Assembly: GCA_039545335.1 (NCBI GenBank)
Contig: BCIN01000008.1
Span: forward strand, 321,528 to 385,527
Length of the DNA: 64,000 nucleotides
Direction of reading: 5' to 3'
Origin: Kondoa subrosea
Taxonomy: Eukaryota
Part shown: piece after piece, positions 1 through 24,357 of the stretch
Layout of the letters: each line of letters starts with the position of its first letter
How positions within the stretch are numbered: position 1 is the stretch's first letter
The notes under the pieces: model-generated
What the model saw: the letters and a program-made list of their open reading frames with translations, nothing else
Told to the model about the DNA's origin: nothing
Databases searched by the model: none
Position numbers and translations under genes: made by a program

Positions 1-1005
1 TGTATGTAAAACCCCTTCTGTCCATTCGCTCCTTGTCATCACGCATTAATCCCTGTCATTTGCTTTCTGCTGACTTCTCCCATGCTCTGCCGACTGTCCT
101 TTGGTCTTCCCATGATTGCATGATTGAGATTCCGAGCAGCTTTGCATCTTTGCATCCATTTGATTTAGGTCAGCATTTGGTCACATATAGTATGAGCGAT
201 GCAAGATGCTTGCAGTCAGTAATCACATGAGATCTTCAGCTCTGTGTAGCACCGGACTATCTACAACGCATTCAACGTGTTCTCGCATGCTGACAAAAAG
301 ATATTGTCAACATTGGTCAAAAGCAAGTACGAAACGTCAACGCATGCATGAAGCACAGGTAGCGAAAAGATGCAGGCAGCAAAAACAAAAAGCAAGGGTG
401 CTTTGTCAACGCAAGTCGAAAGTGTAATGACGAGGTCAACGCGCAATCGCCTTAGGCAAGCCCAAGAACGAAAGCAAGCTCGAGAGATTGATTAATCGAT
501 GATACATTCGTTGAATGTAATCTAGCGATTAAGCTAAATAGAACAGATACTACACTTGATCTAAGCCAAAAGGCCAGACTGTTTTCGGGGTTGAAAATGA
601 GTAAACGACTTGAAAGGGTGCAGCAAGTCAACTAACGAGGATACAGGCCAACCTCTGAATGCGCATATGTACGCGCAGCCAGTATTTTGTAGGACGTGAG
701 AACGATTCGCGAGACAAACGAGAGACATTGTTATTTCTTTAATGGAAGAGTGCTCCTAGTGCCTCTAAGCAGTACAGATGACCATGAAGTAGCTGATAAT
801 GTTCCTTTAGATGATAGATAACGTCCAAGATCGCGACTGCAAGCAGAAAGCATGCTGGAAGTAATTCAGCAACAAGGCAAGATGACTATATTTTGCGACG
901 GCAAGAAGACAAAAGCGGTCGCACAAAGTCGTAGTATCAACACATGGGTAGACAGAAGGTCTTGCAGAGGTGCTGATTCGGCCATAGCAGGATGGCTAGG
1001 TATGA
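1..1005. repeat. Left arm of long inverted repeat (runs off the window start)
   Basis: 1-962 is the reverse complement of 3776-4737 (paired coordinates sum to 4738), with no mismatch found by eye; ORF-track peptides 206..427+/4311..4532- and 261..446-/4292..4477+ are identical. 964-1005 pairs with 3734-3775 after a 1-bp indel, with 3 mismatches. Confidence 0.97.
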
Positions 1006-3733
1006 TGTGGCCGAGTCTCTGGCTCGAATGCTGTCGAACCGGAATCGAGATAGAGCAACAACTCCAGAGTATCGATAGAAGCAGAAAGGGCGCTATCATA
1101 CGTAGGATAGCCAGCGAATGAGAACCCACAAGGGGCAAAAGCTGCGGGCAAGAGTAATTGCTTGAAATTTCGGCTCATTCAGTATGTATTGGCTGGATAT
1201 AAAGCAGTATCGCATGCTGTGTAGCTTCGGAAAGTTGAACAGCGAGCGGCCGAGGCTGACCTCATGGTTTCAGGAAGACATTCAACGCTTAATTTGCTAG
1301 CACCATGATCTCGAGTTGCTGTGGCTGATCTGTGCTTGCGTGAAGGTATCTCATTCAGTCTATCATATGCTCTGTCTTTCTCTTGTCGAAGATCATTCGA
1401 TCTCACTCTTCTAGAATCTTTGGCACAACGCGCTTCAATTGTCTATCCGTTGCTTTGAGCGGCAGTCTTTGTTGTCTTTGCACTAGGCCAATCCATGTCT
1501 AAATTAGAAGTATCGTCTTGCGCCCCAAAATATTCGCCTGTTCTCTGAATTTGGAGTCTGGACCAGCTTGCTCGAGCATCGATCAAGCCAATATGCTGCG
1601 GTCATTGATGGTGTGTCCGTAGAGGAGAGAATGAGCGCATGGAAAGGCCCTGCTTTTGTCCGGCATATTTCTTACCCTTTGTTGCAACTTGCATGTCTGG
1701 TCGATCGAAAATGGTTAGTTGCATTCTGCTCAATTGCAAGTCTGGCTTGACATGGCTCTCCTCTTCATCCGCTCTGGTGAGCTGCATACTATGAGGCGAC
1801 AAGTGGATTCTGCTCAATGTTTAGGAACAACAGCCAGCCTGTTTGCTGAAAAAAATGGCATACCTTTATCTGCACCTGCACTCAGTCAATCGAATTGCCT
1901 CAACAGCACTTTCAATGTCTTATCTTCTGCGGTGCTTCCGTTTTGGGCAGCTTTAGTGCTGTACTTGACTACTTTGCGTCATGACCATTGGGTCAAACCA
2001 TGCCATTTGACCTGACGACAAGTTAATACAGTTTTGCGCTCACGTAGAGACTCTGCTCATTCAAGACTTCATTGCATCTTCATGAACCTTGTTCTTGGTC
2101 TGACCAAGGGAGTCTTGTTCTTCGATACAATGGAAGGATTGCTGCCCCAGAGCAGATCATTTGCAGAACCCTCTGTCTGCCTGCTTTTGCATCAGTAGGG
2201 GCCAAGGGGAACTGCACACCACTCTCCTATGTTCGCCTTGCATACTCTCATCGCTTCTGGCCCCAGGCCTTCAGCTTTCCTGTCCATGCCTAGATTTGGA
2301 GCTGTTACATGGCGGGTGAGTGATTGCTTCCAGACAACCGCGAATGCCAACACCTGCTTGCGCAGCACCTTCTAAGGGTGAAATATCATTTCGACCTTGC
2401 TCAAATCATCAAACAGCCTAGTTTGTAGCGGATCTTAAGTGTTTTCAGTGCAGTTACGAGATCATACAATCGGAAAAGGCTCCTCCGAGCGATTTCCTCC
2501 TTTCGACGATCTGCTCGTTTTGAGCTCATTATGTCGCAAGAGAGTCGAAGCGATCGATATTTCATGTCCAGCCTCCGTCTGCAATTGACCAGCTGGCCAT
2601 GACTCGTGTCATTGGAAGTAATGAATCTCCGCTAAAGGCCCCTTCGAGCTTGACTCTATCTTCAACATTGAAAGTTGGCTGGTCAACGTGTATCAGTAAA
2701 GGAAATTCGAATCGAGCTCATGTTTGGTGTTCAAACGTTTTCTCTGTTATCTCCTGAACCCAGATCAGGCTCTTTTGCTTCGTCGAATATGCTGTTGAAC
2801 TGTCCTTTGACCAGTTGATTGCTCCTTGAAATTGCCAACTCGAATGATAGTCCAATGCCCGACGTCTGTTCATTGGCGTGAACTTGAACTTTTCTATGTT
2901 TTTGTCGCATTTGACTAGATCTTCCGATCGTCTCAGACATATGTCAAGACTCTCGTCTGGCAATGCTGTCATTCGTTCGGTATCTTCCTGCTCTTAACAA
3001 TGGCTGTGCGTCTTATATCATCTCTGGGCTATCTGTCACCTGGCCGTCTTATACCTGTCAGTTTTAGCATTACGCAATAGGTAGTTTCATCTACATACAC
3101 GTTTATTGTTGCTGAATGTATCTCAACTCTTTTGACAGAACCGGTTGATCGATCTGTATAATTCACTCGGCCCGGCACCAGTTCTTCTCCTTGTGATGTG
3201 ATCTCTCTCGTTCCAGTCCGATTATTTTCGTCTGAAAATGTATCTGCGTCTGATCTGCCTCAACATTTCTATGCTTCTCAAGTTCTGCCGGCTCAGTAAC
3301 ACTACCATCTTCCAATTACGTCTGAGATCTACTAGGCTTAGTATCATACGATTCTACCACTGTTTCTGATTTATCGTCTATTATGCACACGTTCTGCTGG
3401 CTAACAAGAAACCGCTTCCCTGCCGTACAACCAGTGGACAGCTCTAGTCTACATCTTGCTTGTAATTTCCCTCTGCCCTCTGCCATAGTGCAATGCTGTC
3501 TCGTCGGTGTTTCTCTTTACTTTACTTTCAGACAAACCGACCCAACCCATTTTATTGTTGAGAGTGGTAATCTACGTAGGCTTTACTCTACTAAAAAAAA
3601 ACGTCGCGCTGCATGGGGTAGCCTCTGAGCTGCGCCCAAGCGCCAGTACTTGCTTTGCTCTCGCGCAAAGTGCCCTCCAAAGGTGAGAGGAATTTGTAAG
3701 TTATAGAAAATAGAATTTTCTTCTCCTTCCTTC

Positions 3734-4737
3734 TCATACCCATCCATCCTGCTATGGCCGACTCAGCACCTCTGCAGACCTTCTGTCTACCCATGTGTTG
3801 ATACTACGACTTTGTGCGACCGCTTTTGTCTTCTTGCCGTCGCAAAATATAGTCATCTTGCCTTGTTGCTGAATTACTTCCAGCATGCTTTCTGCTTGCA
3901 GTCGCGATCTTGGACGTTATCTATCATCTAAAGGAACATTATCAGCTACTTCATGGTCATCTGTACTGCTTAGAGGCACTAGGAGCACTCTTCCATTAAA
4001 GAAATAACAATGTCTCTCGTTTGTCTCGCGAATCGTTCTCACGTCCTACAAAATACTGGCTGCGCGTACATATGCGCATTCAGAGGTTGGCCTGTATCCT
4101 CGTTAGTTGACTTGCTGCACCCTTTCAAGTCGTTTACTCATTTTCAACCCCGAAAACAGTCTGGCCTTTTGGCTTAGATCAAGTGTAGTATCTGTTCTAT
4201 TTAGCTTAATCGCTAGATTACATTCAACGAATGTATCATCGATTAATCAATCTCTCGAGCTTGCTTTCGTTCTTGGGCTTGCCTAAGGCGATTGCGCGTT
4301 GACCTCGTCATTACACTTTCGACTTGCGTTGACAAAGCACCCTTGCTTTTTGTTTTTGCTGCCTGCATCTTTTCGCTACCTGTGCTTCATGCATGCGTTG
4401 ACGTTTCGTACTTGCTTTTGACCAATGTTGACAATATCTTTTTGTCAGCATGCGAGAACACGTTGAATGCGTTGTAGATAGTCCGGTGCTACACAGAGCT
4501 GAAGATCTCATGTGATTACTGACTGCAAGCATCTTGCATCGCTCATACTATATGTGACCAAATGCTGACCTAAATCAAATGGATGCAAAGATGCAAAGCT
4601 GCTCGGAATCTCAATCATGCAATCATGGGAAGACCAAAGGACAGTCGGCAGAGCATGGGAGAAGTCAGCAGAAAGCAAATGACAGGGATTAATGCGTGAT
4701 GACAAGGAGCGAATGGACAGAAGGGGTTTTACATACA
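3734..4737. repeat. Right arm of long inverted repeat
   Basis: Reverse complement of 1-1005. The last pairable base is ~50 bp from the stop codon of the adjacent hydrolase gene. Confidence 0.97.
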
Positions 4738-4788
4738 TTGCAACAAGCATTAATCACAAACCAAGTTGGCTTTCTACATCGTCACATT

Positions 4789-6187
4789 TCATGCTGGAAA
4801 ACCTTGCTCCCACCTGCGGATTTCCTTCAGGCATTGCTCAGCAGCTTCCACAGGCAGGAAGTGGCTGTATGATCAAATCAGGTCTGCTGGTTTTCCATTT
4901 TCAACAGTGACTTACCCAGTCTGATCATCACCGACACAAACTTGAGACAGGTGCGCGTCGCTTGTAACCAACTTCTTCCAGATCTTCTCCACATCGAAAC
5001 GTCTCTGTAGATGAGCCGAATATAAAATTAACGTAGGGATAGAGAGCTTTCTTTTGCCTTCATCTACGCCGTCGAGCTTCTCATTATCTGATTGCAAAGT
5101 CAGTTGTTAGCATTGAAAGGGAGTTGATCACTCACCAAGATCAACCGTAGCTCCCGCTCTGTAATCCTCTGTTGAGCCTTTGATGTTATCTTTCGAATCC
5201 ACATAGGGCTGAATCCAGCTTTGCATAGCTTTCTCGTTCAGTTTGCCTTTGCAGCGCGTACCAGTCCAGCTATCGACTGTCAGAACAGGTTTAGTATGTT
5301 CTATTGAAGTATTGGTAAAACATACTAGTGTGTTTGATATAGTATGCAGGGTCGGCTGAGATCATATGGTAAGGCATATCGTTGGGTAGGGCTAGGAAAA
5401 CCCTGATTACTTTACGTTAGCTAGACTTCTTACGTTTGATTCCTTTAGCGTACCAATGATAGCTTCCGAATGTCTCAAGTAAAAGTTCAGCTTATGCAGT
5501 CCTTCAATCGGAGGAGACGCACTTCTTGATGCCTGTTGTTCTCCAGCTTCATATCTAATTCAGCACATGTGTCGTTAGTTCCGAAGATAAGAACAGGTGC
5601 ATTGCTCACTATCATACATGTACCAGATCGGTACGATGTCCATCAAGACTACTCCAGCTACTTCTTCTTCCTGTCTGTGTCATTGGCTATCGATTCAAGA
5701 AAGAATACACAAAAAGTATACGCACATAATCCATAGCCCATCGATATGACACTCTCGCACCACGATCATGCCCGATGAGCAATACTTTCTTGTCTGGGCA
5801 TAAGTGCTTGGCCAATTCGCGTATATCTTTTGCCATGGATCGCTTTGAATGTGCTGAGTGATCTTCAGTAGGTTCTTTTTCTGATTGACCATAGCCTGTT
5901 TTGACGAATGAACAAGAGCTCGTTCAGGGTTCTGAGCAGATAGAGTATGTACCTGGTAAATCGACAAGCAGAATCGCTCGCCCGTCCGATGATAATTCAG
6001 GTAGCATTTCATGCCATAGAGTCAGACGTTGAGGATAGCCGTGAAGTAAAATTGAAAGCGGGCCTGAATGATTGGACGCAGCAGCGCGAAAGAAATAGAA
6101 GAGAATAGCGCCAGAGGAGCACGTAAACCTCGATGCCTTGAAATCAGATGGAACCAGAGAAGAGTCAAAAGATGGAGTTGCATCCAT
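4789..6187 (-). CDS. Alpha/beta hydrolase, haloacetate (fluoroacetate) dehalogenase / epoxide hydrolase family, spliced
   Basis: Motifs LLHGYPQ, VDLPGYG, GHDRGAR (nucleophile), SYHWVFLA, TEDYRAGA and TGHFLPVEA across predicted exons. Confidence 0.85.
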
Positions 6188-22618: not shown

Positions 22619-24121
22619 CTATACAACTTCCAGCTGTTGCGAGTCCTTCGTCTTCTTATACTTTAGGATCCAAGGATGCCTCAGTACATCTGCTATCGGT
22701 AAGCGGTCTTCAGGATCATGTCGCAGTAGCTGCGCAGAAATCAAGTCAGCCTACTCTCTGACCATATGAGATTTGATTTGACGCACACTCTTGATCAAAT
22801 CCTTCGCTTCAGCCGAAACAGTCTCAGGGATCTTCAAATCGACCTTTGCTATCCTCTTGTACGTCGCTTGCGCCCCACTGAGCTCTTCAAAAGGTGGAGC
22901 GCCGACCAAGAACTCATACGTCAATACTCCGAGCGCCCAAAGATCGACTTCTCTTGTATGATGCTTGCCTTCGACCATTTCTGGAGGTAGGTAATCAAGA
23001 GTTCCGCAAAGTGTTGAACGACTATCAATCTTTTCAGCTCGACCTAAATCAGAAGAAAAATAGCTCACCGATCCGACGGAGCATGCACTGACCAACCGAA
23101 GTCGCCTATTTTGAGATCGCCATTCAAGCCAAGCAGAATGTTCTCAGGTTTGATATCTCGATGAATGACATGTTTCTTATGCAGATATTGCAGAGCATCG
23201 GCCATTTGAGCAATGTACTGTCGGTGGAGTTCGCATCCTATCAGCGATATACTGAATAGGCGACAAATCTCACCGACCCTTGACGACCTCTTCTCGCTGA
23301 ACTTTCCATGTTTCGACAATTGCTTGTACAGTTCTCCCTTTCCAGCAAACTCAAGCATCAAGAAGATCCGCTTCTCATCATGAAAATAACCATGCAGTCT
23401 AAGGATATGAGGATGCCGAAGATTGGATTGGATTTCGATTTCCCTTCGCGTTTGTTTCTCTACTTTATCCTTGACGAGTTCTGATTTGTAGAGACACTTC
23501 AAAGCGAGAATGTATTGAAATTCAGTATGTTTTGTTCGGACCATGTAGACTCTGCCGAATTTGCCTTTGCCTAGAGCACGACCTAGTTCGAAATCTGAAA
23601 ATTTCCAAGGTTTCGTTGGGCGGGTCAGTCTTCGCATACAATGAGCTCAATTACGACAAGAGCAGTGAAGTGACATACTTTGAAGAGCTAGAATCCAATG
23701 CCAATTCCGTCGCTGCTTCGCCTCCAATCACATCACCTCGGGCAGCTGCCTCATCCCTTTCCAAGCCTCCGTCATACCGACCGAAATCTAATGAAGGAGC
23801 AGCAACAGGCTGAGAAGAAGATGCAACAGAAGATTGGGAAGATGGAACGGAGCGAATAGAGGAAGTGGAAGGTACAGCATTCGAGGCAGGCCGTGTTGGC
23901 TTGAAAGTAGCAGTTTGCGATTGCGAAGTCGTTTGGATCTTAGTCAGAGGAGCTCTACTTTCTGTCTCATTAGTCTTTGCAGCTCGAAACTGTGACATAC
24001 AAAGTCAGACACAATCCTTGTGTTTACTTTTTGCTATGATCTCGCTCACTTTGGACTGGAGCTTGCTGCTGCCTTCAGGATCCAAGCTCAAGGCTGAAAG
24101 TCGCGTGTCTAGCGTACTCAT
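22619..24121 (-). CDS. IPL1: Aurora kinase (Ipl1/Ark1)
   Basis: [60 protein letters not shown]. Confidence 0.95.
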
Positions 24122-24357
24122 CAGGCGCGAAAGTCGTTGTGCTGGATCAACCAAGGACTTCAGAATTGAAGCCAAGCGAGCGGAAGACGTTTAAGTGACG
24201 TTCAGCTAGAATTGGTCACACTGAACAAGGCCACAATTGAGAGAGACGCGAGTGCAAGTCATAACACAGTGTTATAGATACAATGAAACTCTAAAATGGA
24301 ACGGATACAAGGGAATTGGAAGTAATCATAAGGCTGTGCGATACACCCTAGCTCAGA

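Follow-up and report, generated by a model that had tools for sequence, protein, structure and literature searches.

Mirror-image U2 snRNA genes in Kondoa subrosea, in an inverted duplication probably kept identical by gene conversion

Two divergent U2 snRNA genes in the arms of an inverted repeat

A stretch of 64,000 nucleotides of the Kondoa subrosea genome (the window, C8:321528-385527, where C8 is contig BCIN01000008.1) opens with an inverted repeat, each arm of which carries a complete gene for the U2 small nuclear RNA (snRNA). Two divergent and identical U2 units are present, and the block that they bound is probably an inverted segmental duplicate of a U2 transcription unit, its identity held by gene conversion and its spacer able to flip without consequence. 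Positions below are those of the window unless a contig is named, and genome searches refer to the 18.9-Mb, 27-contig assembly (GCA_039545335.1).

Both U2 copies scored 115.8 bits against the Rfam RF00004 cut-off of 46, with all 192 positions of the model covered and most of its helices retained. Each gene has ~420 bp of upstream and ~530 bp of downstream flank within its arm, and no other U2 match was found in the genome (47 of 397 first-look candidates were scored). An earlier note on this DNA, made from the letters alone, had called the block gene-free. That description has to be given up, for each arm has a complete U2 gene and reaches as far as the last exon of a hydrolase gene; the annotation is corrected to place the only U2 genes found among the scored candidates in a block that looks empty to protein-gene finders.

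The geometry described in the same note was borne out by self-alignment: positions 1-962 are the exact reverse complement of 3776-4737, a match far beyond chance, and with an imperfect inner fringe included the arms match over 1-1005 and 3734-4737 with three mismatches and one indel. The leftward extension that had been proposed as a check was carried out across a run of 1,165 Ns (C8:320363-321527) that abuts the first base of the window, and the boundary was found on its far side, where 137 bases mirror positions 4738-4874 (133 exact, one mismatch, three matches). These bases join window base 1 with none lost and none overlapping. Because the mirrored bases continue past the N run, the run lies within the left arm and the full exact repeat is 1,095 bp long. 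No target-site duplication was read from the sequence at either choice of boundary (133 or 137 bases). The N run could hide an insertion that made no target duplication, or it could be an over-estimated gap; a Helitron in the run, considered in view of a break at an A-T step without duplication, is disfavoured, as the exact abutment is unlike Helitron ends.

At their outer ends the arms extend into a protein gene. Two exons of the alpha/beta-hydrolase gene to the right of the spacer match Abhydrolase_1 just short of the Pfam cut-off, with E values of 1.7e-5 and 1.9e-4, and the last exon of the gene contains an HFLPVE motif in which the histidine is presumably catalytic. The outer edge of the repeat (4870-4874) falls in the last intron of this gene (51 nt, 4865-4915), and the outer end of the left arm holds an orphan copy of the last exon. 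The right arm is the parent at the outer end, and since the arm ends inside the last intron of a neighbouring gene, it consists of copied host DNA. Arm and spacer are otherwise single-copy in the genome, the sole exception being a segment of C2 (C2:2504102-2504221) that weakly matches the 3′ half of U2 together with flanking sequence (71% identity, 118 bp); this segment has no Rfam match and is possibly a decayed U2 fragment. The features of the repeat are listed in Table 1.

Table 1. Coordinates of the U2 inverted repeat and the adjoining gene within the window.
Feature	Position	Strand	Remarks
Left arm, visible exact part	1..962	.	133 further exact bases at C8:320230-320362, past the 1,165-N run
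U2 snRNA, left copy, full length	398..585	-	outward (leftward); Rfam RF00004, model 1-192/192
Left inner fringe	963..1005	.	3 mismatches and 1 indel relative to right fringe
Single-copy spacer	1006..3733	.	GC 44-49%; no match to a protein or RNA family; U2 copy downstream of each end
Right inner fringe	3734..3775	.	from self-alignment
Right arm, 1,095 bp identical to left arm	3776..4870	.	parent copy at outer end
U2 snRNA, right copy, full length	4153..4340	+	outward (rightward); Rfam RF00004, model 1-192/192
Alpha/beta-hydrolase gene	4789..6187	-	Abhydrolase_1 on two exons; exon model by eye
Hydrolase last exon (HFLPVE...)	4789..4864	-	exon model by eye; no Pfam match when taken alone

A second mirror pair at U1 and the other snRNA loci

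Genome searches for the other snRNAs returned four matches to U1 and one each to U4, U5 and U6. The U1 matches score below the Rfam cut-off, yet their alignments are full length. Two of them form a divergent pair (C1:1708176-1708355 and C1:1714006-1714185) inside a gap-free inverted repeat of ~1.4 kb (region C1:1707177-1715186), in which a 960-bp exact core is followed outward by 325 bp with 24 substitutions and inward by an edge with indels. The 5.2-kb spacer of this repeat, which could flip passively, encloses a housekeeping gene, that for cytosolic leucyl-tRNA synthetase (LeuRS). The two dispersed U1 copies, both on C4, share just ~320-360 bp with the C1 copies, at 90-93% identity. Because the dispersed copies lack long shared flanks, long flank identity tracks the mirrored arrangement rather than selection acting on the gene, a pattern that local gene conversion would be expected to give.

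A shorter, third inverted repeat adjoins the U5 gene (C1:327642-328165 and C1:331490-332003). It has a 311-bp core, half a tRNA-Thr gene and a single N at mirror positions, and the U5 gene itself lies ~350 bp outside it.

Two peculiarities of the snRNAs themselves were also observed. The Sm sites of U2, U4 and U5 have AAUCU.. in place of the AAUUU.. of the Rfam consensus, and that of U1 reads AAUAU..; to judge from the RNA sequences, the change common to U2, U4 and U5 could point to a co-evolved Sm ring. The 5′ stem-loop of U4 is expanded by ~60 nt relative to the Rfam model, which could represent either an intron or a long stem.

Inverted duplicates elsewhere in the genome

The background against which the U2 repeat is to be judged was obtained by self-comparison of 704 kb, comprising 304 kb of C8 that surround the window together with a blindly chosen 200-kb block from each of C2 and C3; matches of at least 100 bp with E 1e-10 or better were grouped into loci by eye. 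All nine duplicate loci whose copies are more than 5 kb apart are inverted (9-86 kb apart, approximately one per 80 kb), and seven of the eight whose copies are closer than 5 kb are direct, the eighth being the U2 repeat. The inverted bias of the distant pairs has a binomial p of 0.004 and a Fisher p of 0.0004. There was no match between different contigs in the sample. Inverted local duplication is routine in this genome, and no pair seen is as homogeneous as those of the two snRNA genes: the longest stretches of exact identity in the best segments of the nine inverted pairs are 30-468 bp, compared with 962 + 133 bp for U2 and 960 bp for U1. The U2 repeat is the sole pair in the sample that is both longer than 1 kb and more than 99% identical, also among the five inverted pairs of C8, of which 304 of 1,121 kb were examined. 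The snRNA pairs are also those with the shortest spacers, so the effect of distance cannot be separated from that of gene content in this comparison. As for the proposal that the genome might hold either one such repeat per chromosome or many dispersed copies, no dispersed family was found, and inverted pairs as a class appear more common than one to a chromosome.

The U2 repeat is itself enclosed by an inverted pair of protein-kinase genes (22627-24139 and C8:307935-309441), which are 90% identical over 1.5 kb and 35 kb apart.

Origin and maintenance of the U2 repeat

The preferred course of events begins with ~1.1 kb, comprising U2, its flanks and the last exon of the hydrolase gene, being copied in reverse orientation 2.7 kb away, probably as a side effect of break repair or of a small inversion, as may be the case for many other inverted pairs of the genome. 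Ectopic gene conversion between the close copies would then hold ~1 kb identical while the edge decays, a step for which the 42-bp fringe and the U1 twin argue. The pair would persist because inverted copies, when they recombine, cannot loop out the DNA between them. Rare crossovers would instead flip the spacer, and the flip would be neutral, since either orientation would leave an identical U2 unit at each end of the spacer and the hydrolase gene unbroken. Passive and unregulated inversion of the spacer is plausible, and doubled U2 dosage would be the likely function of the pair, if it has any.

On a reading milder than that of an snRNA-bounded centromere, considered below, U1 and U2, the most abundant snRNA genes of the lineage, would be amplified in it as selected mirror pairs that conversion maintains and whose spacers flip continually; this we regard as possible, if rather doubtful.

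Multicopy U1 and U2 gene families, such as the tandem array of human RNU2, evolve in concert, and snRNA genes are clustered in animals. The RNU2 array resembles the present case in that copies of an abundant snRNA gene are kept alike, flanks included, and differs in its arrangement, which is tandem, whereas here there are two copies spaced as mirror images.

A parallel in layout is the flip/flop region of Saccharomyces chromosome XIV, described by Salzberg et al. (2022, PMC9731477) as having homogenised 4-kb inverted repeats and a 24-kb spacer with 15 genes. In both cases duplicated genes lie in near-identical inverted arms with a unique segment between them; in the yeast region, according to that account, conversion is the proposed homogeniser, inversion is passive and without known phenotype, and one copy of an arm may be interrupted by an insertion. 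The differences are of scale and content, the K. subrosea arms being 1.1 kb long and carrying U2, and the spacer being 2.7 kb long without a recognised gene. By analogy, the U2 repeat, known from the sequence of a single assembly, may behave as a scaled-down counterpart of the Saccharomyces region.

With regard to origin, the staggered-break model places inverted duplications at inversion breakpoints, where those reported by Ranz et al. (2007, PMC1885836) average ~88% identity and are mostly decayed. The U2 repeat is like these in that non-repetitive host DNA of less than 1.9 kb, including part of a protein gene, has been copied in inverted orientation without a transposon, and unlike them in having identical arms and an intact gene in the copied segment.

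Several observations weigh against maintenance by conversion, or against the identity that it is meant to explain. The outer edge of the repeat is sharp, with identity exact until four bases before homology ends, which would suit a recent duplication just as well. No large N run other than the one that splits the left arm occurs in the 704 kb sampled. In other repeats single Ns stand at the same place in either copy, and the U1 and U2 cores have none; because the Ns match across copies, near-identical copies might have been merged during assembly and the exact identity may be overstated. Finally, metagenomes yielded no syntenic relative, arm or spacer being matched in none of 80 loci (80 kept of 118), and the best metagenome relatives of a neighbouring exon are 50-66% identical. 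The suggestion of the earlier note that this is an older repeat still being homogenised is the best supported part of its interpretation: it is strengthened by the U1 twin, which has an exact core with both edges decayed, and weakened by the sharp outer edge of the U2 repeat, which leaves room for a recent origin.

The U2 mirror pair illustrates a known process cleanly. No report of mirror-paired U2 or U1 genes in fungi was found in the open-access literature, which is weak evidence of absence. The longest exact inverted cores observed are those that carry the U2 and U1 genes, in a genome whose distant duplicates are nearly always inverted, and the two pairs offer a ready test of flipping and of the role of strong transcription and short spacers as drivers of ectopic conversion.

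Alternative explanations

It is unlikely, though it deserves consideration, that the arms are identical through youth alone, the block being a very recent, one-off inverted duplication produced by a staggered-break inversion or a template switch, with the fringe left by junction mutagenesis or a chance homeologous patch. One would then expect the sharp outer edge and little or no residual homology beyond it, and farther out the homology is indeed weak or none (score 134 compared with a maximum of 108 in 20 shuffles, from a long gappy alignment); the size also fits inversion-associated duplications, which reach ~1.9 kb in the published set (PMC1885836). Against this, the divergence of the fringe (4/43) resembles that of older pairs in the genome, and the U1 twin is clearly an exact core in an old repeat.

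An assembly artefact, in which sequence of the right arm was used to fill some or all of the left, or in which two haplotypes were merged, is improbable. The N run breaks the left arm and the window starts at its edge, other repeats appear to have been merged to judge by their single Ns at matching places, and the stretch was found only in two DNA runs of one sample, which may be the source of the assembly, and in no listed RNA run. On the other hand, four distinct junctions were assembled, the inner fringes differ at four sites, the 1,095 exact bases are free of single Ns, and the twin at U1 is without gaps; a model with one copy would need junctions that are absent from the assembly.

The earlier note had proposed that the block might be a centromere, a long terminal-inverted-repeat element or an invertible segment, and none of these identities is supported, given the U2 genes and the host exon in the arms, the absence of a target-site duplication and of any further copy, the frequency of inverted pairs in the genome and the location of the STE3-type matches elsewhere, although passive inversion of the spacer is plausible. 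The inner imr repeats of fission-yeast centromeres contain tRNA genes, so a compact centromere bounded by snRNA genes may be imagined in what the STE3-type receptors and short introns suggest is a basidiomycete-like yeast, in which the spacer would be the CENP-A core and the highly transcribed U2 units would mark the boundaries of the arms. Near-identical, chromosome-specific arms do flank a unique core, ~6.7 kb of known sequence around the repeat has no recognised whole protein gene, and the pair is unique in the sample for its combined length and identity. Nevertheless a centromere is very improbable here. The arms hold the only U2 genes found among the scored candidates as well as a host exon, and a block of this kind is not gene-free; the U1 repeat, with the same layout, encloses the LeuRS gene; C8 has five inverted pairs in the 304 kb examined; and the GC content of the block is ordinary, with no shift relative to its surroundings. 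The centromeres of Komagataella phaffii, as described by Coughlan et al. (2016, PMC5010909), have 2-kb arms and a middle of ~1 kb, span 6-9 kb, are non-transcribed and occur once per chromosome. They share with the U2 repeat near-identical chromosome-specific arms, a unique middle and unexceptional base composition, and differ in that U2 genes and a host exon occupy the arms here and the same layout surrounds LeuRS elsewhere in the genome. The Cryptococcus centromeres known from PMC5866544 are large and rich in retrotransposons.

A non-autonomous element with long terminal inverted repeats, of the Mutator or foldback type, is largely refuted: long arms do flank a non-coding interior, but these arms are composed of a U2 gene and a host exon, neither choice of boundary reveals a target-site duplication, no further copy was found, and the genome search gave no match to MULE (PF10551), the sole transposase family searched. 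Dada transposons, which according to PMC3706591 insert inside small-RNA genes with target duplications, were also rejected, the U2 genes here being uninterrupted.

A regulated flip-flop switch comparable to a mating-type locus is as improbable as the transposon, for although identical arms of more than 1 kb could support inversion and the spacer has a 42-codon open reading frame (orf) with a CaaX-like ending (2401-2529, minus strand), that orf lacks repeat structure, flipping would bring no gene into a new context, STE3-type pheromone-receptor matches were found in the genome search at four loci on C1 and C4 only (C1:2428923, C1:2745580, C4:50728-51777 and C4:1439329-1440384), and homeodomain, receptor and recombinase families are absent from 175 orfs over 84 kb (with cut-offs of 60-105 aa that miss short exons, and with no genome-wide search for homeodomains).

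Contents of the spacer

The statement of the earlier note that the 2728-bp spacer has no recognisable gene held up: there was no Pfam match above the cut-off in the 32 orfs of at least 60 aa from window positions 1-5,100 and no Rfam match in the spacer, and ARAGORN found no tRNA gene in the three loci examined. Stop codons number 33-46 per frame, the same as in shuffled sequence, and the hexamer score is at most 14, compared with 20-30 in good exons, although the hydrolase exons score low as well. The absence of a Pfam match, the shuffled-like stops and the low hexamer score tell against a gene or a pseudogene. Of the six frames, two on the minus strand were read through their stops and had no paralogue in the genome, and one of these had no match among 1.84 billion proteins. 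The minus strand has one canonical-looking 44-nt intron and protein-like stretches, features of the sequence with which a decayed relic of a lineage-specific gene would be possible. The 42-codon orf mentioned above is basic and was one of 18 ATG starts listed with a cysteine four residues before the end; its CaaX-like motif is probably due to chance, and no other feature speaks for a pheromone.

Neighbouring genes

To the left of the U2 repeat, an intron-rich gene contains a tandem duplication of 540 bp at 88.5% identity (L004:4837-5904); its product is probably secreted, and a subtilase gene is adjacent.

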